DNA of 64,000 nucleotides, taken from assembly GCA_965208905.1 (NCBI GenBank), contig OZ242365.1, forward strand, positions 288,001-352,000. The letters run 5' to 3'. Position numbers and translations under genes: made by a program. The notes beneath the pieces are model-generated. The model had not been told where the DNA came from and ran no database searches. It saw only the letters and a program-made list of their open reading frames with translations. Shown here piece by piece: positions 703 through 55,490 of the stretch. Origin of the DNA: Nitrosopumilaceae archaeon (GTDB taxonomy: Archaea > Thermoproteota > Nitrososphaeria > Nitrososphaerales > Nitrosopumilaceae). Each line of letters opens with the position of its first letter. Position 1 is the stretch's first letter.

Positions 703-3542
703 CTACCTACCTCAATGGAGACATAGTGCATCTCGGCTATGCCGTCCCGAACCAAGACCGTACCTATGTTGATACTAGCATCACTCTCCCACATGAATAC
801 GCGGTCCGTACGGGGCACCACAAAGTCATCGATAAACGACTCCAAGGCGAATATGGCATCGTCCTGATCGGATGCAGAATAAAAGAAGACCTCGCCCTCT
901 TGGAAGGTCAATGAGAATTGTATTGTTGTGGGCTCCAGTACCTCTATACTTCTATCCTCCATGACGGTTATCAGTGCTGAGATTCTGTCATCTCGGGTCA
1001 TCTCAACAATCTCGCCGCCATTTGTGGTTGATGTAGCACCAGAGAGCTTCTGCAGGTATGCCCTAAATGCAGACTCTTGGTCCTCACCCAGACCCACATA
1101 GTATTCACCGGTAAATGATGCCCCTACAGCGGCCACAGTACCCAACTGAGCCACAACGCCACCAGCACCTGCAGTATACACGGGTATAAAGTATACATCC
1201 TGATCACCCACTCTATACAGTATGTTATCGCCTATACGGGGATTGCGTAACAGTGTGTTTAGCTGCGCAAACTCGGGATCTCGGTCCAGCGCCTCCTTTA
1301 CAGCCGTAGGACCTATCAGTTTTGTAGTGGAATTAAGTGGAACTTCGTAGAACTGCATGCGGCCTAGATTTGGTAGATCGTTTTCGACAATCATATACCC
1401 AGCTAGGTTTCTGCCTTGAGAGCCCCGCAGCTCCAGCGATAATAGACCCAAAAATTCAGTCTGATCAAAGCCCGGAGGTTTGGCCTGTATATAGTACGTC
1501 TCCAAACCAGCAGGGATCTCATAGAACTGGTTGGCCTGTATGAAGGTCTCTACATTAGTCACATGGTAGTTGTTGTACATCTGAGTCTTCCAGTTGAATA
1601 GCTCCACTGGGTATCGTATCTGATTGGTCAGCCACTCAGGCATGGGTTCGAACTTTTCATGATACTGGGATACAAACATCTCTGTGAAAAAGTCATCGCC
1701 AGTCTTCAGTAGTGATATGTCGCCATGGTACGTGTCTATAAGGGCATATCCCACCAATCTCAGATACGGATGTCCCTGAGACCATGGTACATCACGCGTG
1801 TCAAATCCTATGATAAGTGGGACCAGCCAATATGTACTCTCACCATCAGTAACTGGCAACAGATCTATCTTTGCACCAAATAGAGAGTACAAAAAGTACG
1901 GATATAGCGTCTCCATGCGGTCATGTATGTCTTTGTAACGGTTTACATGTATGGATTCGGTCGGATAAGACAACAAAAAGTTTGGCTCAAAGATGTAGCT
2001 TAGAGGTGGAGAGATGGATATGCCGCCATCACCGGCGTAAAATGCGCCCTCCAACTCCCGGGTATCTTCACCACGGGTTACTCTGTATCCGGACCAGGTA
2101 TCCTGAAAGAGGCCGCCCTCGCCATAGTATATGCTACGCTGATCAAAGAAGGTGCTACTGTCGACTATTTGACCATCCGTCGCACCCAAAGTCAGAAAGC
2201 CGTTAGGTACGTGTGTATACACCAGATGCTCGTTGAACCAGATATTGTCTGGATTGACAGTGCTAGGGAGGATTGGTGCCATTGATGCGGTCCAATACAG
2301 TGTATCATTAAAACGCAGAATATCATTGTCTTCAAAGTCCACGTATGGTATAAGACCAATCTCTGGTTTTAGTTTGGCAAATGCTGCCTCCCAGTCCCAT
2401 ACGCGAATAACGTCCAGCACGTCTTTGTTGTCTTCAACATATCCAGCAATATTGTTTGATGAAACAGAGAGTAGTTGAGCATCGTGTGTATTCTCCTGTA
2501 TACTGTATAGTTCTGCCAGATATCTATTAACGCCTATCTCCTGAGCGGTATACGGACCAATGTACTCTATCTTTCTGGCATCGGCAACGCTGTTGTTGAC
2601 CAGAGTTGCAGCCAATACTACTAAAACTATAACCAGTACAGTTCCAATACGTATTATTACATCGCGTTTGAACATATGCGTGAGAATACGCGCACGCATT
2701 CTATCTACTATGGAGAATGCCACCAAGGCAAATCCAATTAGTAGAGCTCCAGTGATTATATATCGGGTATTGTAGTCTATGTTGTCTGTAAAGAACAGAT
2801 TAAAGGCTGTCCATAGTACAGTTATTCCAAGAATCAGCTCCAATGTTGATGCATAGTTCAGATATCGAGCCTTTCCTTCTGTAGAGTCAGCCACATAAGT
2901 GGTTATCATGCTAATTACTCCATGTAGCCCAACGTATAGGAGCAGACGTAGACCTATGGCAGCCAGTATGGGTGAGAGTAGTATCACTAGTGAAGGTATA
3001 AGAGGTATAACAGCATCACTGGCATATGATGGGTCTGTGGGGGGCGTCACAAAGGGCAGTGTAAATAGACCAGGAAGGTTCTCTACGCCTAATTGGTTTC
3101 CATCAAAGAATGATACGGCTGCAAAGCCAAACATCACATTTACAAAGAATGCTCCAAAGAGTAATACTTTTGAGATCTGCCATATTGCAAACTGAACAGG
3201 GCTGAGTTTAAAGTTACCAAATCCTTGTATACTCTTAGATTCTCCAGGAGCCCGGCTCATTAAATATATGGCCGAGTTCAACACATACCAGAATATTGAA
3301 GAGCGCTTGACTGCATTTACTCGCACCAGTGAAATTGAAGATAGTATCAGGGCAGATACTAACGAGTAGTATAATGGTTTTGCAAATTGCTCATCAAACT
3401 CGGTAAAATTCATAAGCATTACAACGAGTTGATTTCCGGCCAGTAGGAGTACTACCAAACCTAAAACAACAAAGACAGCTACCTTGACATACTTTCCAAT
3501 GTCCGAAGGTGGAGACGGTTTGTCCGTTGATTCAGTATACAA
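699..3542 (-). CDS. UPF0182 family integral membrane protein
   Basis: 947 aa, multiple N-terminal TM helices, IRVWD / HLVYTH / IYYGE / IRYP motifs of UPF0182. Confidence 0.8.
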   Translation of the reverse strand: MYTESTDKPSPPSDIGKYVKVAVFVVLGLVVLLLAGNQLVVMLMNFTEFDEQFAKPLYYSLVSALILSSISLVRVNAVKRSSIFWYVLNSAIYLMSRAPGESKSIQGFGNFKLSPVQFAIWQISKVLLFGAFFVNVMFGFAAVSFFDGNQLGVENLPGLFTLPFVTPPTDPSYASDAVIPLIPSLVILLSPILAAIGLRLLLYVGLHGVISMITTYVADSTEGKARYLNYASTLELILGITVLWTAFNLFFTDNIDYNTRYIITGALLIGFALVAFSIVDRMRARILTHMFKRDVIIRIGTVLVIVLVVLAATLVNNSVADARKIEYIGPYTAQEIGVNRYLAELYSIQENTHDAQLLSVSSNNIAGYVEDNKDVLDVIRVWDWEAAFAKLKPEIGLIPYVDFEDNDILRFNDTLYWTASMAPILPSTVNPDNIWFNEHLVYTHVPNGFLTLGATDGQIVDSSTFFDQRSIYYGEGGLFQDTWSGYRVTRGEDTRELEGAFYAGDGGISISPPLSYIFEPNFLLSYPTESIHVNRYKDIHDRMETLYPYFLYSLFGAKIDLLPVTDGESTYWLVPLIIGFDTRDVPWSQGHPYLRLVGYALIDTYHGDISLLKTGDDFFTEMFVSQYHEKFEPMPEWLTNQIRYPVELFNWKTQMYNNYHVTNVETFIQANQFYEIPAGLETYYIQAKPPGFDQTEFLGLLSLELRGSQGRNLAGYMIVENDLPNLGRMQFYEVPLNSTTKLIGPTAVKEALDRDPEFAQLNTLLRNPRIGDNILYRVGDQDVYFIPVYTAGAGGVVAQLGTVAAVGASFTGEYYVGLGEDQESAFRAYLQKLSGATSTTNGGEIVEMTRDDRISALITVMEDRSIEVLEPTTIQFSLTFQEGEVFFYSASDQDDAIFALESFIDDFVVPRTDRVFMWESDASINIGTVLVRDGIAEMHYVSIEVGS

Positions 3543-40268: not shown

Positions 40269-41387
40269 TTATGTTTGTTTTAACTGTCCCATATTATCTA
40301 AAATGTCGTGGATGTTATTAGGTCCAAGTTTTATATTGATATTATATTGCTTTATTTTATATTGTTTCATATCTGGAGGTATTTTTAATAATTTATACTG
40401 TCTGGATTCTGCATTAAAAGGTAGGTTCAATCTCTCGGATATAGCAACCATCTGTTCATAGTCAGGCAATGCCAGTATCGGGTTTAGTTGGGCATCGTAT
40501 ATTCGATGGAGTAATTTATCTACATATAAGCCTGGAAAAATGATTCTAGATATAGGTAATGTTATGTGTGATATGTTGTGATCTTTTGCGATATTAATGG
40601 CTAGTTCGGTGGCAAGTATCACCATATTTAAAAATCCTTGACCTCCTGATGATACTTTATGTATGGTTAATTGTATTTTTTTGTGTATTAAGTATGGAAG
40701 TATTTTATTGATTATCTTTGCCAGATTTGTCAAATCACTCTCCTTTCTGTATAATGCAAGAATTTTGGTATTGTAACCCATCCGTATGGTCTCCAAACAT
40801 GCCATGGCAGACATTTCATCAAATATGCACGATACCGCCTTGCCCTGCACCCCCATTGGCAAGCCTCCAAAGCACTTGTCTTCAAATATGGATATGTAAG
40901 CATTACTCTGTGTCATGTATACATATAGTAGTTTATCATGTCGGTCTTGTGTACCAGGTCGTACATTTTGTGATGACTTTTCTTCTATTATGGATGAAGT
41001 TATTGCCATCTCGGCATCTTTTGGTAGAAATCCTCTAGAGTATCCTTCTACCTGCACATAAAATGTCTCGTTTCCCAATAATAGATTTCCACCTACTTCA
41101 GTGGCGACCTCTACAATGTCGTTGTAATCATTCTTTATCTGTCTGGCTATGAGCACTTTTTCTATGCCGTATAGCCGCTCAATGGCCGATGACGCAAAGA
41201 CCGGATCATGAGCTTCGACCAGTATAAGGTGCTCATCTCTACATATTGAGGTGTATGGTTCGTCTTCAATCTTTAGGACGTTTTTTATGCATCGTATTAA
41301 CGTGCGTATATACTTTTTAGCGTGTAGTGATGTAAATACAACCACAAACGATTTTGTTGCCATCGTGTACATGACTACACCCCCCAC
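40269..41387 (-). CDS. ThiI-like THUMP-domain protein with degenerate PP-loop
   Basis: LYGIEK, THUMP-like region, GGLP.G.QGK followed by SCIFDEMS instead of LSGGxDS. Confidence 0.7.
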   Translation of the reverse strand: MGGVVMYTMATKSFVVVFTSLHAKKYIRTLIRCIKNVLKIEDEPYTSICRDEHLILVEAHDPVFASSAIERLYGIEKVLIARQIKNDYNDIVEVATEVGGNLLLGNETFYVQVEGYSRGFLPKDAEMAITSSIIEEKSSQNVRPGTQDRHDKLLYVYMTQSNAYISIFEDKCFGGLPMGVQGKAVSCIFDEMSAMACLETIRMGYNTKILALYRKESDLTNLAKIINKILPYLIHKKIQLTIHKVSSGGQGFLNMVILATELAINIAKDHNISHITLPISRIIFPGLYVDKLLHRIYDAQLNPILALPDYEQMVAISERLNLPFNAESRQYKLLKIPPDMKQYKIKQYNINIKLGPNNIHDILDNMGQLKQT

Positions 41388-42981
41388 ATAATTTCTTTTT
41401 GGAGTCGTGTCTATGATATGAACTATGCCTATAAGTAGCGGGGTTCCTCCCGCAAAGTCGGGTGATTACACCCCCCGCCATGCGGGATAGCCTGTCAGCC
41501 CAGTTGCTCCAGCAACCCTGTATGAGTGGTGTGGGATCGAGGATTACATCCACACCACGACGGACTTCGCCCAGACTGGCCGAAACCTTACGACCATATC
41601 GGGATACGGCGCTTGTTCGCCGTATGTTCTCCACTGCGTTGACGTCGCGATCTACGCCAACCGTATGGCAGCGGGTGCAGTCTTTTTTATGATAAGCTCC
41701 AGTTAGTGGGGTTCTACATGCAGCACATAGCTTGGATGTGTTGTGTGGACGCATATGTAATGCCTCTACTCCCAAAAATTGGGACTTTTCATAAATTAAA
41801 TTCGATGCTTTTCGCATCATGGCAGAATGTAACCTGCGACGCATATTATGGCCAAACTTCCCATTCTTCTGCCAACCATACGATATATGGGTTAAATCCT
41901 CCAACATCACCAAGCACCCGGATTGTGCGGCCCACTGTGCTATACATAACGCTATCACATTCAGCACATGTTCGTGGTGGCGCATGGCTTTGGCCACCCT
42001 GCGCTTTTTAGCATTCTTCCTTGATTTTGTGTGGTTATGTGGTATGCTCAATATGCATCTGCTCATCTGCTTCTTTATCTCGGCGGCCCTCTTGTGTTTG
42101 CCCTCCCTCTTGAGTTTATTGTATCTGCGTTTGAGTTTGCTGTGTAACTTGTGACCACCATGTGTGACTTGTTGCTTTTCTCTGCGCTCCTCCTCTTTCT
42201 TGTGTACAACACACCTTCCGGTACGTGCCGCATATGCGATATTATCATGTGTACGGGTATACGTATTGTTTACATCCTCAGTCTTTGCCCCCTCAATGGC
42301 CTGTATCGTGTATGATAGATCAAACTGTACCATTGTATCTTTATCACCTACGGTGATGTTCTTTTCATTAATATCCACGCCAATTACATCCTTTGGTGTA
42401 CCGCCCACACAGCCCACATCCGTAAGTAGTTCGATAATCTCTGACTTGCCGTGTGGGTGGGATTTTTCAACCTTGGGCACTTTGTTGTAATATGTAATGG
42501 TATATGTGGTTGGCGTGATCCACAACTCTCCCAACTCATTTTGCCCTATTTTACGTACCACATCTGAAGAGACGGGAATTGCTATCATATGTGGGTGTTT
42601 TGATGAGCCAACATTTGCAATAGCCATATATCCACCCGCTATCGGATTCAGCCTCCAATCTTGGTTTTTCAACTTTACAACCGGATTACGAAATATAGGT
42701 TCAGACACCTTCGTGCCCTGCGCAGCCTTTGTATTGTACGTTTTATGGGCGGCAACCCCGTCCCGTATGGCGGTCTGCGTTATGGACGAATATACTTTGG
42801 GGTCAGGGCCGCGCATTATATGATATATTAATGCGTTAACACCATAGGTATTCTTCCCCGTGTTATCTGCTATAATGTACGCCACTTCTGCCACCTTCCT
42901 GACATGTTCAAACACATGTCGCATGCCCAAATTTTTTGTGTATGGACGTGTTACTGCCCTGCTATTTTTGACTAGAGCCAT
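41317..42981 (-). CDS. tnpB: TnpB-like RNA-guided nuclease (large, Lys/His-rich insert); ORF reads through the TIR into host DNA
   Basis: RuvC-I GVDIN, RuvC-II LEDL, TSKLCAAC...CTRC Zn finger, RuvC-III DRDVNA; ATG 42981 preceded by TTAAATA at about -29. Confidence 0.85.
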   Translation of the reverse strand: MALVKNSRAVTRPYTKNLGMRHVFEHVRKVAEVAYIIADNTGKNTYGVNALIYHIMRGPDPKVYSSITQTAIRDGVAAHKTYNTKAAQGTKVSEPIFRNPVVKLKNQDWRLNPIAGGYMAIANVGSSKHPHMIAIPVSSDVVRKIGQNELGELWITPTTYTITYYNKVPKVEKSHPHGKSEIIELLTDVGCVGGTPKDVIGVDINEKNITVGDKDTMVQFDLSYTIQAIEGAKTEDVNNTYTRTHDNIAYAARTGRCVVHKKEEERREKQQVTHGGHKLHSKLKRRYNKLKREGKHKRAAEIKKQMSRCILSIPHNHTKSRKNAKKRRVAKAMRHHEHVLNVIALCIAQWAAQSGCLVMLEDLTHISYGWQKNGKFGHNMRRRLHSAMMRKASNLIYEKSQFLGVEALHMRPHNTSKLCAACRTPLTGAYHKKDCTRCHTVGVDRDVNAVENIRRTSAVSRYGRKVSASLGEVRRGVDVILDPTPLIQGCWSNWADRLSRMAGGVITRLCGRNPATYRHSSYHRHDSKKKLCGGCSHVHDGNKIVCGCIYITTR

Positions 42982-43057
42982 CACATAGTACGGTTCAATA
43001 ACGTATTTAACACTATCCAACACACATCAACTATCACCCGACTTTGCGGGAGGAATC
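41442..43057 (-). mobile_element. Non-autonomous TIR element (1616 bp) carrying only tnpB; 25-bp TIRs, 8-bp TSD AGTAGCGG
   Basis: GGTTCCTCCCGCAAAGTCGGGTGAT at 41442-41466 and ATCACCCGACTTTGCGGGAGGAATC at 43033-43057 (1 mismatch); AGTAGCGG at 41434-41441 and 43058-43065. Confidence 0.9.
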
Positions 43058-50487: not shown

Positions 50488-51036
50488 ATGGGAGATATTA
50501 CTGTAAACCAACTGCACGGAATTGTCTTGCGTGAATCGGAGAGTGATGCCATATTAGAGATAGATGCCAATACATATCAGAGTATATCAGAGCTTTTGAG
50601 TCGTCTACGAAGACAAGCCTTTGATGGTATGGAGAATGATCTACGAGACAGTCTGGTGAATGCAATGTCTGATCTAAGTGGAATGTTGTTGCGCATGCGA
50701 TTGGAGAAAGCCTCTAAATCTGCTAATGTAGACACCAACAATTTGGTGGACGAGGAGAGATACATTCTGGATGCTTATGAGGAACAACAAGAGAGATTGG
50801 CCTTGGTAGCCGCAGCAACATCCAAGGGGAAGACGCAGTTGCTGAAATATGTTTCAGATAGATATAGAAGTAGAATGATCACGGTGAGACTTCTCAAAGA
50901 TGTTGATACATTGACCGGATCAGACTATGAGTCTTATGGTCCCTTTGAGGCAGAAGATGTTGCGACCATTCCATATGTCAACGCGCGAGCATTGATGTCG
51001 CAGGGCAGCGCCACTCGTATCAGATGGACGGGTTGA
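50488..51036 (+). CDS. GINS complex subunit (Gins51-like)
   Basis: Helical A domain (RLEKA..NL..EE) followed by B domain YGPFEAEDVATIP..NA..L. Confidence 0.75.
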   Translation: MGDITVNQLHGIVLRESESDAILEIDANTYQSISELLSRLRRQAFDGMENDLRDSLVNAMSDLSGMLLRMRLEKASKSANVDTNNLVDEERYILDAYEEQQERLALVAAATSKGKTQLLKYVSDRYRSRMITVRLLKDVDTLTGSDYESYGPFEAEDVATIPYVNARALMSQGSATRIRWTG

Positions 51037-51104
51037 ATTAGTACAGCTCGTCTGTCTTGTCACACCCATGGATTAAATAAATGAGGCACATCTACTGAAG
51101 CGTA

Positions 51105-51389
51105 GTGTCTCATACGGGTGTGGATGTAATAGATTTTCTATACTATACAATATATCCCGTACTAGGTATATTCGTGGTAGAAGGAATCAGCCGTCTGGCA
51201 CGAATACCAAAGTGGATAAAGTTGTGGGCACAAGCAGGGGTCTCCATGGGGTTTGGTATATATTATTGGTTCATACTGCCAGCCCCCCAAAACTTTCCAC
51301 TGACAGGTCTTGTATTACTCGCTTTAGCTGCAGCCCTCATATATCAGGGTAAGCGCGCCCGCATCTCTCCAGACAAGAGTCCATACTAA
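51105..51389 (+). CDS. Small membrane protein (3 TM)
   Basis: Three hydrophobic segments; TTAAATA upstream. Confidence 0.7.
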   Translation: MSHTGVDVIDFLYYTIYPVLGIFVVEGISRLARIPKWIKLWAQAGVSMGFGIYYWFILPAPQNFPLTGLVLLALAAALIYQGKRARISPDKSPY

Positions 51390-51604
51390 CGTCCCAGAAA
51401 TCGTTTAAAGAAGCCCTTTTTGTCGGTATTACCGTCTCGTATAACCTTCTTTTGACCAAACTTTTTTGCCCGTATGAGTGTAAGTTTTACGCATCGGTGC
51501 TCTTCAGGAAGGCGATGTTCTGGGCAAAAGTAGTCCCCACAGTAGTTACATTGAAACGGCATATCGGTCATCTCTCCACAGTAACAACACCGCTCTTGCA
51601 TCAT
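51386..51604 (-). CDS. AN1-type zinc finger protein
   Basis: C..C....MPFQCNYC..YFC.EHRLPEEHRC. Confidence 0.85.
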   Translation of the reverse strand: MMQERCCYCGEMTDMPFQCNYCGDYFCPEHRLPEEHRCVKLTLIRAKKFGQKKVIRDGNTDKKGFFKRFLGR

Positions 51605-51643
51605 AATGCAAGAATAGCTCTTCTAACTAATATAGTTTCAAGA

Positions 51644-53109
51644 GGGAATTATATACAAAAGTACACAACCCCAATTCTGAGAGTTAATGCCTGAACCACG
51701 GATCGCGTCCATACAACTCCCCTTAAATACCAGCATACCGTATTATATATTATGATACGAATAGTTAAGGTACCGCTACGGAGAGATGTGCGGTTCGCGG
51801 AGTGGGCGCACCGCACGAATCATGCGTCAAGATATGTGTACAACCGCGCCGTATCAGAGTATTTGTTTGGCGGCGAATACATGGAGAGGGTGGTAGTGGA
51901 CATCCTGCAGCCCTTTAAACTACCGGGCAAGCTGGATTTTACATCAGGTATGCTGGACGATGACTACCATACATATGATTTTGGGCCGTCAAAGAGGGCA
52001 TTAAAGTACGGCATGTTCAAGCAGCTTACGGAGTGGCGCGCTGAACATGCATGGGTATCTGACTTGCCTATGGTGTTTGGCAGGGGCGCCATACAGGATG
52101 CCTCCGTCGCATGTAGACGAGTTGTAGATGACAACTCCGGCCACGCGCCATACCGCCGCAAAGATGGCCGCATCATACTTAGTTCCGTTACACCGCCTGT
52201 ACGGAAAGATAGCCATACGGTACATATCCCCGGATATGGTATTGTAGAGACCGCCAATCCCATCAATGTATTATGGGACATGCGGTCATTCAAGATAGTT
52301 GATGTTACCAAACGGGTGGACAAGCATACCGTACAATCAGACCACATGTTTGAGCTGCATATTGCCATATATGAACCGATGGAACCGCACCGTACTACGG
52401 GTACAATACGGGGTGTCGATGTGGGAGGCAAGCACCTCGCCGTCACGGTAGATACGGACGGCAACGTTACAATACACAACACCCGCCATAGAGCAATCCT
52501 GCGGGAGATTGACGCTCTCAAGAGTTTGCGCGACCGCAAGACACGGCATGGCCGGAAGTGGCATATATTGAATGACCAAATAAAGCGGCTATACAGGAAG
52601 GCCAACAACATAGCTGCGAACACCATAAATCAGACGATTGTACAGATAACCAATGGTGTGGACGCAGTCGTGGTCGAATCGCTCTCCGTAAAGGATATGA
52701 CCACCCATGGCGGGAATTACAAACGCGCCATGAACCGTTCAATGCGGGAGAACCATGTTGGGGAGTTCCTGCGCAAGCTTGCGCAGTGGTGTGATATACA
52801 CAACATACCGCTGTTGGGGGCATCGGCCAAATATACGAGCCAGACGTGCCATGTGTGTGGGACGGTGGATGCCGAGTCGCGTATATCACGCGACAAATTC
52901 ATTTGCACTAATTGTACCAGGGTATTCCACGCGGATGTCAATGCCGCCTGGAATATTCTGTATAGGGCGGCGGGGAAGATCGTCCTAAGACGGCCAGGGC
53001 ACAAGGAGGACTACAAGCCAACACCTTCTATGCTCCACTGTATACAGAAAAGTCGTCAGAAAAGGCATGAGTGTACAGCCGAGGCTGTGTACTTTTGTAT
53101 ATAATTCCC
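51644..53109 (+). mobile_element. Non-autonomous TIR element (1466 bp) carrying only tnpB; perfect 24-bp TIRs, 8-bp TSD TTTCAAGA
   Basis: GGGAATTATATACAAAAGTACACA at 51644-51667 and its exact reverse complement at 53086-53109; TTTCAAGA at 51636-51643 and 53110-53117. Confidence 0.92.
51752..53104 (+). CDS. tnpB: TnpB-like RNA-guided nuclease
   Basis: RYVYNRAV helix, RuvC-I GVDVG, RuvC-II VVESL, TSQTCHVCG...CTNC, RuvC-III HADVNAA; stop codon lies inside the right TIR; TTAAATA box upstream. Confidence 0.9.
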   Translation: MIRIVKVPLRRDVRFAEWAHRTNHASRYVYNRAVSEYLFGGEYMERVVVDILQPFKLPGKLDFTSGMLDDDYHTYDFGPSKRALKYGMFKQLTEWRAEHAWVSDLPMVFGRGAIQDASVACRRVVDDNSGHAPYRRKDGRIILSSVTPPVRKDSHTVHIPGYGIVETANPINVLWDMRSFKIVDVTKRVDKHTVQSDHMFELHIAIYEPMEPHRTTGTIRGVDVGGKHLAVTVDTDGNVTIHNTRHRAILREIDALKSLRDRKTRHGRKWHILNDQIKRLYRKANNIAANTINQTIVQITNGVDAVVVESLSVKDMTTHGGNYKRAMNRSMRENHVGEFLRKLAQWCDIHNIPLLGASAKYTSQTCHVCGTVDAESRISRDKFICTNCTRVFHADVNAAWNILYRAAGKIVLRRPGHKEDYKPTPSMLHCIQKSRQKRHECTAEAVYFCI

Positions 53110-53111
53110 TT

Positions 53112-53381
53112 TCAAGATATTAGGAATATCAGATATATGGAACCGCCCATCAAGCTAAAGCCCAGGCCCATATATACAACCCGATTATTCTTGTCATATG
53201 TTGACTTCCAGAGTAGTACGCCTCCTAAAAGGCCCAAGAGCAGCACAAATACGCCGGCAATAAGCATGTCACCATCGGTACCAGATACTAGAGGCTGAAA
53301 AAGGCCTGACAACAGCATAAAGAATACTATCAAGTATACGTACTTGAAGGAGGATAATGATTTTGTTGTATTTTCAGGCAA
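53112..53381 (-). CDS. Small membrane protein (3 TM)
   Basis: Hydrophobic 89-aa ORF; its stop codon lies inside the TSD of the adjacent element. Confidence 0.65.
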   Translation of the reverse strand: MPENTTKSLSSFKYVYLIVFFMLLSGLFQPLVSGTDGDMLIAGVFVLLLGLLGGVLLWKSTYDKNNRVVYMGLGFSLMGGSIYLIFLIS

Positions 53382-53418
53382 CTACAAACAGTACGAACAA
53401 AAGTCGGTAATAAATTTA

Positions 53419-53790
53419 GGGAATTATATACGAAGTTAACGCCAATTGGTGTCAATCTTGTCTTGTCCTAGAGCCTTTGATAGTGGCGCGTATGGTGTTG
53501 CATCTCTTTCGAGATCAGCAGCTGCTGCCAAGTGTCTGCCGCCAACACCAACACCCCGCATATTGCCAGTCTTTTTTGGTTTGTACGACACTACTATGCA
53601 TTTGGTTATCTCCCCGCCAAGTAGGTATGATGAGACAGTGTTGTTGTAAACATACCATAAAATGTATGATTCGTGCGGACGGTCCACTCGTATAGTTTTG
53701 TGTTATGCTACAATCTTACCTTGTAGACCGTGTCATGGGTTCCTTTTAGAGGTGACTTTGTATATTGCGCTACTTTCGTGTATGATTCCC
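53419..53790 (-). mobile_element. MITE (372 bp) derived from the 51644-53109 tnpB element family; 8-bp TSD TAAATTTA
   Basis: Ends GGGAATTATATACGAAG and (reverse complement) GGGAATCATACACGAAAG; TAAATTTA at 53411-53418 and 53791-53798; tnpB relics EWTVRTNH, YVYNNTVSSYLLGGE, TGNMRGVGVGGRHLA. Confidence 0.85.
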
Positions 53791-53795
53791 TAAAT

Positions 53796-55490
53796 TTACA
53801 TCATGCCGCCCATATCAGGCATACCACCCATGCCGGGCATTCCTCCCATACCACCCATACCAGGCATACCGCCTTCGGCTCCAGGTGGAGGTCCTGCAGA
53901 CTTTGCAGTGGTAATAACATCATCTATGCGCAATAGCATACAGGCAGCTTCGGTGGCAGCCATGACTACTTGTAGTTTGACAGAGAGTGGTTCAATAATC
54001 TCGCTCTCCTTCATATCAGAGACCGCAGCCTTTGTTACATCAATACCAACCCATCGCTCACCCTTCAAATGGCGGCTTCGTAGGGAGGTCAGTGTATCAA
54101 TGGGATCCATGCCTGCATTCTCTGCCAAAGCCAGTGGTATGGACTCCATGCTGTCGGCGAACTTTTCTGCAGCCAACTGTTCACGGCCATCTAACGTATT
54201 AGACCAATTCTGTAAGCTTGTGGCGACAAATGTCTCGGGAGCTCCACCCCCAGCCACAACTGATGGTCTTAGTGTAACGTCTCGAACCACCATCAACGCA
54301 TCATGTACAGAACGTTCTACTTCATCTACAACTCTTTGTGAGCCTCCCCGGAGCAGTATGGTAACGGATTTTGGATTGTCACAACCTCGTATAAAGACCC
54401 ACTTGTCTTCTTCAATCTTTTGTTCCTCAACAACTTCTGCTACGCCTAGCTTGACACTGGGCAAGTCGTCGAGATTGGTAACTATCTGTGTGCCGGTAGC
54501 CTTGGCTAACTTTGTCAAGTCACTCTCTTTGATACGACGTACTGCCAAGACACCTGCCTTTGCTAGATAGTGTTGAGCCATATCATCAATTCCTTTCTGG
54601 CACAAGACTACGTTGGCGCCGCTGCCAACAATCTTGTCAACCATGGACTTTAACATTCGGTTCTCTTCTTCCAAAAAGATCTTTATTTGTTGGGGGTTTG
54701 AGATGTTTATCTTGGCATCCGTCTCGGTCTTGTTTATCTCCAAAGCAGAGTTTAACAGTGCAATTCGGGCATTTGATACTCTGCGTGGCATTCCACCATG
54801 GACTATCTCTTTGTCCAAAACCACTCCCTTTACAATCTCAGAGTTTTTAATTGAGGCACCTGCCTTCTTCTCCACCTTTATATCATCAACATCTACCTTG
54901 TAATCACCATCATCTTTCTCTGTAACTGACATTACAGCTTGTACCACAATATCTGCGAGTTGATCTGAATCGCTCTTTACTAGTTTTGTTTGCATGGCAG
55001 TTCGTGCCACCTTCTTTAGAGTATCCACATCATCAGCAGACACAGTCTCGCTGATCTCAGCCAAGAAGGAACCTGCCTGCTTTGAGGCCTTTCTGTAGCC
55101 ATCCACAATTATGGTAGGGTGTACATCCTGATTAACCAAAACCTCAGCATTCTCCAATAGGGCACCTGCCAAGACCACTGCAGATGTAGTTCCATCACCC
55201 ACCTCATTATCGGTAGTCTTTGAGATCTCGACGAGCATCTTTGCGGCAGGGTGTTGTACATCTATCTCTTTGAGTATGGTGGCGCCATCATTGGTTATTG
55301 TGACATCGCCCAAAGAGTCCACCAACATCTTGTCCATTCCTCGAGGGCCTAGACTCGTACGTACTATCTCGGCGATTATCTTTGATGCTGCAATGTTGTT
55401 CTTGTGAGCATCACGTCCTTTTGTCTCAGTAGAACCATCTTTTAGTAGCACTACGGGCATCTTTCCCTGAGAAGCCATTTGTACACTCAT
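53796..55490 (-). CDS. ths: Thermosome (group II chaperonin) subunit
   Basis: [19 protein letters not shown]-repeat tail. Confidence 0.95.

Follow-up and report, generated by a model that had tools for sequence, protein, structure and literature searches.

Through in silico analysis of a 64,000-nucleotide stretch of the genome of a sponge-associated archaeon (the whole stretch termed here the window), a 1.47-kb mobile element, element B, with tnpB as its sole gene content has been characterized. The element is best explained as a non-autonomous cassette of the IS1595 family, carrying tnpB and a probable omegaRNA as cargo, mobilised in trans and encoding a nuclease that would target the empty site; the probability of this explanation as a whole is estimated at about 0.72.

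Element B occupies 1466 bp (window positions 51644-53109), and its parts and flanks are arranged as follows:

51632-51635, plus strand: ATAG, the candidate TAM, the bases of the flank immediately before the left duplication
51636-51643, no strand: left duplication TTTCAAGA; single copy (8 letters shared) in the empty-site contig of run X15
51644-51667, plus strand: left inverted end, 24 nt, perfect; its first 13 nt, GGGAATTATATAC, are the tip common to the resident IS1595 elements
51668-51751, plus strand: non-coding leader, AT-rich just before the ATG; the least conserved part among copies (column identity 0.66-0.78)
51752-53104, plus strand: tnpB, 450 aa, with RuvC triad and CCCC zinc finger intact
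53086-53109, minus strand: right inverted end, 24 nt, recognised by comparison of the ends and holding the tnpB stop codon
53110-53117, no strand: right duplication TTTCAAGA, the second copy; the empty-site contig has one copy only

The two ends are identical over 24 nt and mismatched at position 25 (A vs G), and an inverted-repeat search lists the pair as 28 nt with 96% complementarity. The 23-nt end pattern has two matches in the window, one for each end of element B, compared to 0.00 on average over 100 shuffles. The intact tnpB frame terminates with a TAA stop (53102-53104) within the right inverted end, leaving 5 bp between the 3' end of the gene and the end of the element. Close to this end lies the hairpin ACAGC-cgag-GCTGT (53075-53088), which has a longer form, GTGTACAGC/GCTGTGTAC (53071-53092), and whose 3' half overlaps the inverted end. 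The left duplication is directly preceded by TATAG (51631-51635). The preliminary description had claimed both this anatomy (the length, the 24-nt ends, the 8-bp duplication, the intact tnpB with its stop in the right end, and the hairpin) and the TATAG 5' of the duplication; each of these is read in the sequence, and the TATAG is found at the empty site as well. A promoter presumably lies in the leader, upstream of tnpB. The right inverted end also contains a TTTT run, which could terminate archaeal transcription short of the flank.

The family of element B occupies 15 near-full-length places in the genome at 79-100% identity; about 15 full-length copies are 79-93% identical to element B, each at a different site. 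A perfect 8-bp duplication accompanies 18 of the 27 listed tip pairs (22 pairs under looser tip matching), and the genome holds about 18 independent insertions of the family. In a related strain, position 51635 is joined directly to 53110 on a 53,548-nt contig of run X15, which thus leaves out 1474 bases and has 8 letters in common with both sides; its empty site reads TATAG, TTTCAAGA and TATTAGG in succession. Since exactly the element and one duplication are skipped, the insertion is polymorphic, in keeping with the earlier suggestion that it is recent. Further insertions were sought in metagenomes: the 27-nt end pattern matched 0 stretches, and the 21-nt pattern matched one unrelated contig with no second end. 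An internally deleted relative lies downstream in the window:

53419-53790, minus strand: MITE of 372 bp, lacking internal sequence; it shares the tips and is bounded by a separate 8-bp duplication, TAAATTTA (53411-53418 and 53791-53798)

Three right-end fragments of about 165-200 nt (genome positions 1494006, 1694379 and 2197325) were considered as "omegaRNA-only" MITEs and rejected as truncated relics, as a matching left end was looked for and not found.

Elements of the IS1595 family generate 8-bp duplications and often carry passenger genes. The genome contains four complete IS1595-family transposons (2690, 2837 and twice 2131 bp) with tips of 10-13 nt the same as those of element B, all beginning GGGAATTATA(TAC) and each bounded by its own perfect 8-bp duplication. 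A genome search with PF12762 gave 11 matches, 9 of them over the cut-off, including four at 140-142 bits in open frames of 320-323 aa; the resident transposase proteins themselves score 138-140 bits with DDE_Tnp_IS1595 (PF12762), and 24.8 and 25.2 with Zn_ribbon_IS1595, just short of its cut-off of 25.4. Resident IS1595 transposase genes are located at genome positions 1770084-1771043, 1045415-1046377 (minus strand) and 676416-677366 (minus strand). These autonomous elements carry passenger genes of their own, here a DNA methylase-HNH fusion. Element B had been proposed to be a non-autonomous IS1595-like element with TnpB as passenger, for which a transposase-bearing partner with the same tips should exist in the genome; the four residents supply such partners, and the tips and 8-bp duplications of element B match theirs. 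The only long open reading frame of element B is tnpB, and DDE_Tnp_IS1595 transposase is not encoded; the element is thus a non-autonomous derivative rather than an IS1595 in the strict sense. Its GGGAATTAT would also fit ggnnatTAT, which we take to be the end consensus of the ISNwi1 group; given the resident elements, the family assignment does not need this consensus.

The identity of the ends of element B to those of the residents stops after 10-13 nt, positions 14-24 being different; by eye, the end of the 2690-bp element (genome 1770047-1772736) agrees at 17 of 24 positions. The closest inverted end, matching at 18 of 20 nt, belongs to an IS1595 element from a sister species. As only the outer 10-13 nt are common to the residents, their transposases are candidate movers of element B. 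The 13-mer tip is found at the ends of at least five families of tnpB, of MITEs and of all complete IS1595 elements, in each case next to 8-bp duplications; the tnpB tips bounding such insertions can be written as GGGnnTTATATAC. Transposase and tnpB were never found together in one element here, and the IS1595 transposase and this TnpB family co-occur in 5/5 further genomes of the genus. IS1595-like transposase genes with lower scores (about 54-56 bits) were rejected as better partners, as none lies between element B tips.

The earlier identification of the encoded protein as TnpB agrees with the profile searches: the NCBIfam model guided_TnpB (NF040570) gives 123.8 bits (cut-off 100), and the Pfam models Cas12f1-like_TNB (56.4) and OrfB_IS605 (35.2) are both above their cut-offs. 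In an alignment of five TnpB families, D223, E309 and D395 as well as C366, C369, C385 and C388 are invariant. The tnpB of the copies is kept under purifying selection, with dN/dS of about 0.19 (91 pairs of copies), and 14 of the 15 copies retain an open frame of at least 453 aa.

The flanks of the insertions differ in an oriented manner. A G just outside the duplication (position -1; consensus ATnG) is present at 16/18 tnpB-upstream ends, 2/18 being without it, compared to 5/21 other ends (Fisher p = 7e-5). The MITE at 53419-53790 likewise has G at -1 on its tnpB-upstream side. In a family of a sister species, 55% identical, the values are 5/6 upstream and 0/6 on the other side, and in a third species, in the 8-bp register, G occurs at one of two upstream ends. 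At the ends of IS1595 elements with a transposase, the G is present in 3/10 cases and on no consistent side; the values are 0/3, 0/2 and 0/3 for other TnpB families with the same tips, and 7/18 for all non-B elements pooled (manual count). Because both ends read the same over 24 nt, no discrimination between the two sides would be expected of a symmetric transposase complex. The oriented flank motif beside the duplication is a new observation of this analysis, and its sequence and position fit a candidate TAM followed by a guide beginning with the duplication. Only one position is near-invariant, so that as a TAM the motif would be unusually short for TnpB.

A probable omegaRNA scaffold is suggested by the last part of the element, with the following features:

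52876-53109, plus strand: candidate omegaRNA scaffold, overlapping the last 75 tnpB codons and ending at the last base of the element; suggested by synonymous constraint and fold
52973-52977, plus strand: GGGAA, within the loop of the hairpin 52965-52985; possible pairing with the final TTCCC (53105-53109)
53066-53097, plus strand: terminal stem-loop, with closing stem CATGA/TTTTG around GTGTACAGC-cgag-GCTGTGTAC; 3' strand inside the right inverted end
53110-53129, plus strand: predicted guide, the duplication and the next flank, placed from the scaffold end at 53109 and the TAM-like motif; 20 nt assumed

In the last 75 codons of tnpB the dS is 0.29 vs 0.54 elsewhere, and third-codon-position diversity is 0.13-0.16 vs 0.19-0.35 elsewhere beyond the first 25 codons. 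The folded region is 94.6% paired, compared to 42-51% in slid controls, with compensatory changes in 6 pairs; most of this covariation comes from two lineages, and the structure under test had been built from these very sequences. Within the closing stem CATGA/TTTTG, CG is replaced by GC in 2 copies and AU by GC in 5, a covariation score reached by 0/500 shuffles. The whole-alignment count gives the terminal hairpin as 82% paired with no compensatory pair, an undercount caused by a one-column alignment shift between two lineages. A covariance model built on the final 150 nt also matches at the right end of relatives with as little as 36% protein identity, and in a 36%-identical Nitrosopumilus element it finds the same place with E = 6e-11. 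The halved synonymous divergence of the last ~235 nt, together with a fold that shows covariation and continues into the inverted end, is as expected of an omegaRNA scaffold, which this region probably encodes.

The GGGAA loop and the final TTCCC could pair as a pseudoknot; GGGA is invariant in 20/20 sequences and hence shows no covariation. The spacing of the two, about -135 to -1, is similar to that of the pseudoknot given for the ISXfa1 reRNA in the consulted part of PMC10711439. The RNAalifold consensus also had an outer helix (columns 3-8 with 217-222), to which two local hairpins were preferred. An Rfam scan of 51500-53900 with E up to 10 gave only a chance match to RAGATH-25, outside element B. 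Two sponge metatranscriptomes, available as contigs only, contained one 204-nt piece inside tnpB (depth 6) and had no coverage of the right junction. A guide starting with the duplication, as predicted earlier, is indirectly supported by the covarying fold reaching the last bases and by the G/ATnG 5' of the duplication; the 3' part of the RNA is then predicted to read TTTCAAGATATTAGG... and the target TTTCAAGATATTAGGAATAT.

The proposed mechanism begins with the resident IS1595 transposases, which would move element B in trans by cut-and-paste; such mobilisation would explain a polymorphic copy that differs by 7% from every other copy. Transcription through the right end would give an omegaRNA whose scaffold extends to the element's final base and whose guide consists of the 8-bp duplication and the right flank. 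The target would be the empty site, where ATnG, as the TAM, is followed by the duplication and then by the flank. Both occupied junctions would be spared, since the right one has TCCC in the TAM position and the left one matches the guide over 8 nt only; the full target and TAM would come together only at the empty site or at a site rejoined precisely across the duplication. A cut at such a site would be repaired from the element-bearing copy (homing or retention), so that the insertions which persist would be those with the motif on the tnpB-upstream side. Preferential retention of insertions beside a correctly oriented TAM would leave a strand-specific, TnpB-family-specific footprint in the genome. 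The narrower proposal, that the guide opens with the 8 nt of the variable duplication, with an ATnG TAM (its G nearly fixed) just outside on the tnpB-upstream side, and that homing is thereby adapted to DDE cut-and-paste, is put forward tentatively, at somewhat short of even odds. As a side possibility, the nuclease might bind without cleavage at the left junction, where the TAM and an 8-nt seed closely precede the presumed tnpB promoter, and might thereby damp tnpB expression.

It is unlikely, yet conceivable, that the cassette and its trans-mobilisation are real and the flank goes unread by the nuclease, the 3' RNA ending inside the element or serving a different purpose. On this view, the transposase complex may choose its targets asymmetrically, or selection of another kind, e.g. 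on expression, may have produced the one-sided G. The metatranscriptome contigs do not cover the right junction, and the T4 run in the right end would suit an RNA that stops early; moreover, strong conservation is confined to one flank position, and the 7/18 among non-B elements suggest that the transposase itself may slightly favour a G. However, a complex built on 24-nt identical ends should be symmetric near the target, the transposase-bearing IS1595 ends have the G in only 3/10 cases and on inconsistent sides, and the other TnpB families within the same tips lack it altogether. In addition, structure and synonymous constraint extend right up to the last bases.

Two further readings concern the mover of the cassette. 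That it is a transposase other than the resident IS1595, with the shared tips inherited or convergent and the true partner absent or unrecognised, would accommodate inverted-end positions 14-24, unlike those of all four residents, as well as the weaker IS1595-like genes without these tips. This is improbable in view of the single 13-mer at the ends of tnpB families, of MITEs and of all complete IS1595 elements, invariably beside 8-bp duplications, the 18/20-nt match to the sister-species IS1595 end and the co-occurrence of transposase and cassettes in all five genomes of the genus. Alternatively, element B might be an ordinary tnpB-only element of IS200/IS605 (IS1341 type), moved as single-stranded DNA by a Y1 TnpA. 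The protein does match OrfB_IS605 and, below the cut-offs, the IS200/IS607 TnpB models, and the ends of other tnpB families in the genome are asymmetric and lack inverted repeats. Nevertheless, the chance of this is very small: perfect inverted ends and 8-bp duplications are present at at least 18 sites, features that IS200/IS605 elements do not produce according to the part of PMC13565253 consulted, and a search for the Y1 TnpA domain (Y1_Tnp) gave 0 matches in this 99.6%-complete genome. Membership of the IS1341 group is refuted by the inverted ends, the duplications, the empty site and the absence of a Y1_Tnp match.

TnpB is thought to benefit IS605 and IS607 elements through their scarless excision. 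A 2026 review (PMC13565253, as far as consulted) asks why OMEGA nucleases rarely accompany prokaryotic DDE transposons and how they recognise targets if the duplications vary, and lists ISL2, IS630 and IS1031 as TnpB-linked DDE families. The present genome is a natural data set on this question, with autonomous IS1595 partners, at least four tnpB families in one shell, about 18 independent insertions of one family, an empty site in a sister strain and a one-sided motif located exactly where a TAM is expected for a guide that opens with the duplication. Should this motif be a TAM, it would provide a ready prediction of the TAM, guide start and scaffold limits of a compact archaeal nuclease, and oriented flank logos would become a simple genomic TAM readout for transposon-borne nucleases.

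The ISNwi1/ISNwi1+ type of IS1595, as Siguier, Gagnevin and Chandler are said to have described it in Res Microbiol in 2009, carries passenger genes and has 8-bp duplications and ends of the form GGnnATTAT. Element B shares the 8-bp duplications, and its ends would fit this form; in contrast, it has no transposase, and its passenger is an RNA-guided nuclease with a candidate RNA overlapping the inverted end. TnpB within DDE/inverted-repeat transposons was reported in 2023 (Altae-Tran et al., PNAS, PMC10691335; branches DDE-1 to DDE-6 in the parts compared). As in those elements, the tnpB of element B lies between inverted terminal repeats with its 3' end less than 250 bp from the transposon end, and solo TnpBs carrying the ends of transposase-bearing elements are read there as mobilised in trans, as is proposed here. 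The main text of that paper names IS630 and has 0 occurrences of "IS1595", which its supplements may list. Duplications and an oriented flank motif, described here for element B, are absent from the parts compared, and on that comparison the match to the DDE-associated branches appears to be one of architecture only.

Fanzor1 and Fanzor2* (Yoon et al. 2023, NAR, PMC10711439; PMC13565253; both as far as consulted) resemble the TnpB of element B in being TnpB-type nucleases on cut-and-paste transposons, in their case eukaryotic ones with inverted repeats and duplications. Their inverted end is part of the guide-RNA scaffold and the RNA continues into the flank, as is proposed for element B. The Fanzor duplication, however, is short and fixed in sequence and is read as belonging to the scaffold, its 5' copy as part of the TAM; in element B it is 8 bp long and variable, and could thus only be part of the guide, the conserved motif lying outside it. 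IS200/IS605 elements of the ISDra2/IS608 type, for which restorative homing is described (PMC13565253, same part), have an omegaRNA that overlaps the 3' end of tnpB and a guide beyond the right end, an arrangement similar to that proposed here. They differ from element B in having no inverted ends or duplication, in scarless Y1 excision and in a TAM that is the target sequence of the transposase. In these elements the TAM lies at the left flank, so that TAM and target stand together only at the empty site, and the same logic is proposed for element B.

In silico analysis of element B, a mobile element with tnpB as its only gene, bears out the anatomy given in the preliminary description: 1466 bp between two copies of an 8-bp target-site duplication, inverted ends perfect over 24 nt (28 nt at 96% in the inverted-repeat listing), a tnpB stop codon inside the right end and an adjoining hairpin. 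In the 64 kb of the window a 23-nt end pattern was found two times; 100 shuffled versions contained it 0.00 times on average. The features at the locus are as follows (window coordinates):

51386-51604, minus: 72-aa zinc-finger-like gene, start codon 32 nt from element B, which is upstream
51636-51643 and 53110-53117: duplication TTTCAAGA
51644-53109, tnpB on plus: element B
51752-53104, plus: sole long ORF of element B, 450 aa, TAA stop within the right inverted end
53075-53088: small hairpin, within a longer 9-bp stem spanning 53071-53092
53112-53381, minus: 89-aa membrane-protein ORF, stop codon within the duplication
53411-53798 including duplication, minus: internally deleted relative of element B, 372 bp, same tips (outermost bases of the ends), own 8-bp duplication TAAATTTA

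Because element B lies upstream of the 72-aa gene, the insertion parts this gene from its former upstream DNA. The element B protein scores 123.8 bits with the NCBIfam model guided_TnpB (cut-off 100) and far under the cut-offs of the IS607 and IS200 TnpB models. It possesses the Pfam domains Cas12f1-like_TNB and OrfB_IS605; aligned with four further tnpB families from the genus, it shows no variation at the RuvC residues D223, E309 and D395 or at the four cysteines of the zinc finger. Among solved structures, the closest chains are those of TnpB and Cas12f (E = 4e-10 and weaker).

A search with the DNA of element B located 15 almost complete copies in the genome of 2.21 Mb (79-100% identity). 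An open frame of at least 453 aa is present in 14 copies and the remaining one carries a stop; dN/dS is 0.19 (91 pairs among the 14 intact copies), so that the nuclease is kept functional in separate lineages. Tips were paired by match to the 13-mer GGGAATTATATAC with at most two mismatches, and perfect 8-bp flanking repeats, each different, were identified in 18 of the 27 listed pairs; looser tip matching raised the number of such pairs to 22. One copy, at genome 1972621-1975198, is interrupted by an insertion sequence encoding a 335-aa protein that looks, by eye, like an IS630-type transposase; this copy retains its outer 8-bp duplication AAAAGATA.

The contigs of four public runs were compared with window 50500-54500. 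A contig of 53,548 nt from run X15, a related strain, joins 51635 to 53110, skipping 1474 bases, that is, the element and one duplication, with 8 letters fitting both sides; its left flank differs from the window by one base and one gap letter. This strain also has the 372-bp relative, in a version that lacks 3 nt and has 10 nt inserted, and the contigs of run X11 end within the ends of element B. Element B and its closest genomic copy, by contrast, share only 92.9% identity; such an old lineage at a polymorphic site would be expected from conservative cut-and-paste movement.

The PF12762 (DDE_Tnp_IS1595) model gave 11 matches in the genome, 9 of them above cut-off. Four score 140-142 bits, have open frames of 320-323 aa, and lie in complete IS1595 elements of 2690, 2837 and twice 2131 bp, both ends of which begin GGGAATTATA(TAC) and each of which has a perfect 8-bp duplication. 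The proteins of the complete elements reach 138-140 bits for DDE_Tnp_IS1595, and the IS1595 zinc ribbon in partner proteins scores 24.8 and 25.2 bits, slightly under the 25.4 cut-off. The search for IS1595 transposases with these ends, proposed in the preliminary description, thus found four resident partners, identical to element B for the outer 10-13 nt only; a sister species has an IS1595 element in which 18 of 20 end nucleotides match. The passenger of two of the autonomous elements is a fusion of an N6/N4 DNA methylase with an HNH nuclease; one element encodes it intact (454 aa), the other as two separate ORFs:

Genome 1770047-1772736: autonomous IS1595 element (L074)
Genome 1043578-1046414: autonomous IS1595 element (L075)

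At least four tnpB families, with elements of about 1466, 1420, 1639/1554 and 1438 bp, share the tips and the 8-bp duplication, the others being 25-30% identical to the element B TnpB where aligned, and 22 of the 59 examined tnpB places are bounded by such tips. The resident partners, the 8-bp duplications and the empty site support the proposal that element B is a non-autonomous IS1595-like element with TnpB as passenger; the underlying observation is confirmed. Two 1639-bp cassettes (genome 1455264-1456902 and 2049469-2051107) are 100% identical, in direct orientation and 594 kb apart, and the 8-mer TAATTTCC recurs at their outer flanks but not at the inner ones, as a cointegrate or composite-type event would leave it and two separate insertions would not.

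In the whole 2.2-Mb genome, guided_TnpB gave 72 matches, 42 above cut-off. The ends of at least two multi-copy tnpB families (e.g. genome 704123 and 1947554) are asymmetric and lack inverted repeats; the genome (completeness 99.6%) gave no match to Y1 TnpA, and the transposase of these families is therefore missing from it. Window 41317-43055 holds a second, larger TnpB-like ORF (minus, 568 aa), which matches Cas12f1-like_TNB at only 28.8 bits and has a perfect 23-nt inverted repeat with arms at 43033-43055, just upstream, and 41444-41466, inside its 3' part; the genome has three similar genes at other places.

The 3' end of tnpB has features of a candidate omegaRNA. Among the 15 copies, third-codon-position diversity is 0.13-0.16 in the last 75 codons against 0.19-0.35 elsewhere (0.14 in the first 25 codons), dS there is 0.29, down from 0.54, and codon-position bias is absent in the last 25. 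A fold covering the final 240 nt was tested on these copies and on five of the 55%-identical TnpB family of the sister species: it is 94.6% paired, against 42-51% with partners slid, compensatory changes occur in six pairs, and none of 500 shuffles gave a covariation score as high. The fold was derived from the same sequences and the signal comes from essentially two lineages, so that the evidence for a covarying structure is moderate. The 3' strand of the closing stem (53066-53070/53093-53097) lies within the inverted end, and the stem changes from CG to GC in two copies and from AU to GC in five. A covariance model built from the final 150 nt matches the right ends of relatives, among them that of a Nitrosopumilus element at 36% protein identity (45 bits, E = 6e-11), an element that retains the GGGA-loop hairpin, the long-range helix and GAAAAG-CAUGAG, and whose palindromic closing stem immediately precedes UAUAUAAUUCCC. 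Rfam gave no match for the candidate RNA region, and contig-level metatranscriptomes yielded no RNA ends. The loop GGGAA (52973-52977) could form a pseudoknot with the final UUCCC; both are invariant, hence without covariation, and their spacing resembles that of the ISXfa1 reRNA pseudoknot (PMC10711439).

All ends of the element B family were oriented by tnpB before flank bases were counted. A G just outside the duplication is present at 16 of 18 upstream ends and 5 of 21 downstream ends (Fisher p = 7e-5), the upstream consensus being A-T-n-G; the two upstream ends in this genome that lack it belong to the two copies whose flanks form no duplication. The sister-species family has the G at 5/6 upstream and 0/6 downstream ends (p = 0.015), and a third species at one of two upstream ends in the 8-bp register. 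Since both ends are identical over 24 nt, a symmetric transposase complex should give no one-sided preference. Transposase-bearing IS1595 ends have the G at 3/10, on no consistent side; among the further tnpB families bounded by these tips it occurs in 3/3 (1639/1554-bp), 0/3 (1420-bp), 0/2 (1438-bp) and 0/3 (448-aa, sister species). The duplications are strongly AT-rich. If the guide, the RNA part beyond the scaffold, starts with the first duplication base, the flank motif would sit exactly at the position of the TAM, the motif expected 5' of the nuclease target. The right junction has TCCC in this position, and the left junction matches the predicted guide for only 8 nt.

Of 101 genomes of the family, six had a match to the element B protein at E <= 1e-20, namely its own and all five others of the genus, and none of the 95 genomes in 26 other genera; IS1595 transposase is present in the same five. 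The nearest relatives in a species-genome scan are Cenarchaeum and Nitrosopumilaceae MAGs. Among 80 loci kept, a Nitrosopumilus locus (L080) has GGGnnTTATATAC-type tips and an 8-bp duplication with one mismatch, and two bacterial loci have such tips (GGGGCTTATATAC / GGGACTTATATAC) with perfect 8-bp duplications, both with AGG abutting the duplication at the tnpB-upstream end:

L149, Gammaproteobacteria MAG, 1667-3062: tnpB-only element, 1396 bp
L154, bacterial, 1885-3175: tnpB-only element, 1291 bp

Inverted terminal repeats have been described for six TnpB branches associated with DDE transposases, as have solo TnpBs with the same ends, for which mobilisation in trans was proposed (Altae-Tran et al. 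2023, PMC10691335). IS630 is named in the main text of this study and IS1595 is not, though its supplements may bear on the point; a 2026 review (PMC13565253) lists ISL2, IS630 and IS1031, and has as a topic why DDE transposons rarely carry OMEGA systems. A literature search for TnpB together with IS1595 gave, judged by title and abstract, no paper on TnpB in IS1595 elements, and one for TnpB, Thaumarchaeota and insertion sequence gave no match. Element B itself is of an already known kind; what merits testing is its oriented TAM-like footprint and the possibility that the duplication forms part of the guide. In Fanzors of transposons with inverted repeats and duplications, the duplication has been interpreted as belonging to the scaffold, and its 5' copy to the TAM (PMC13565253, PMC10711439). 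In contrast, the duplication of element B is variable and 8 bp long, and therefore could only be guide.
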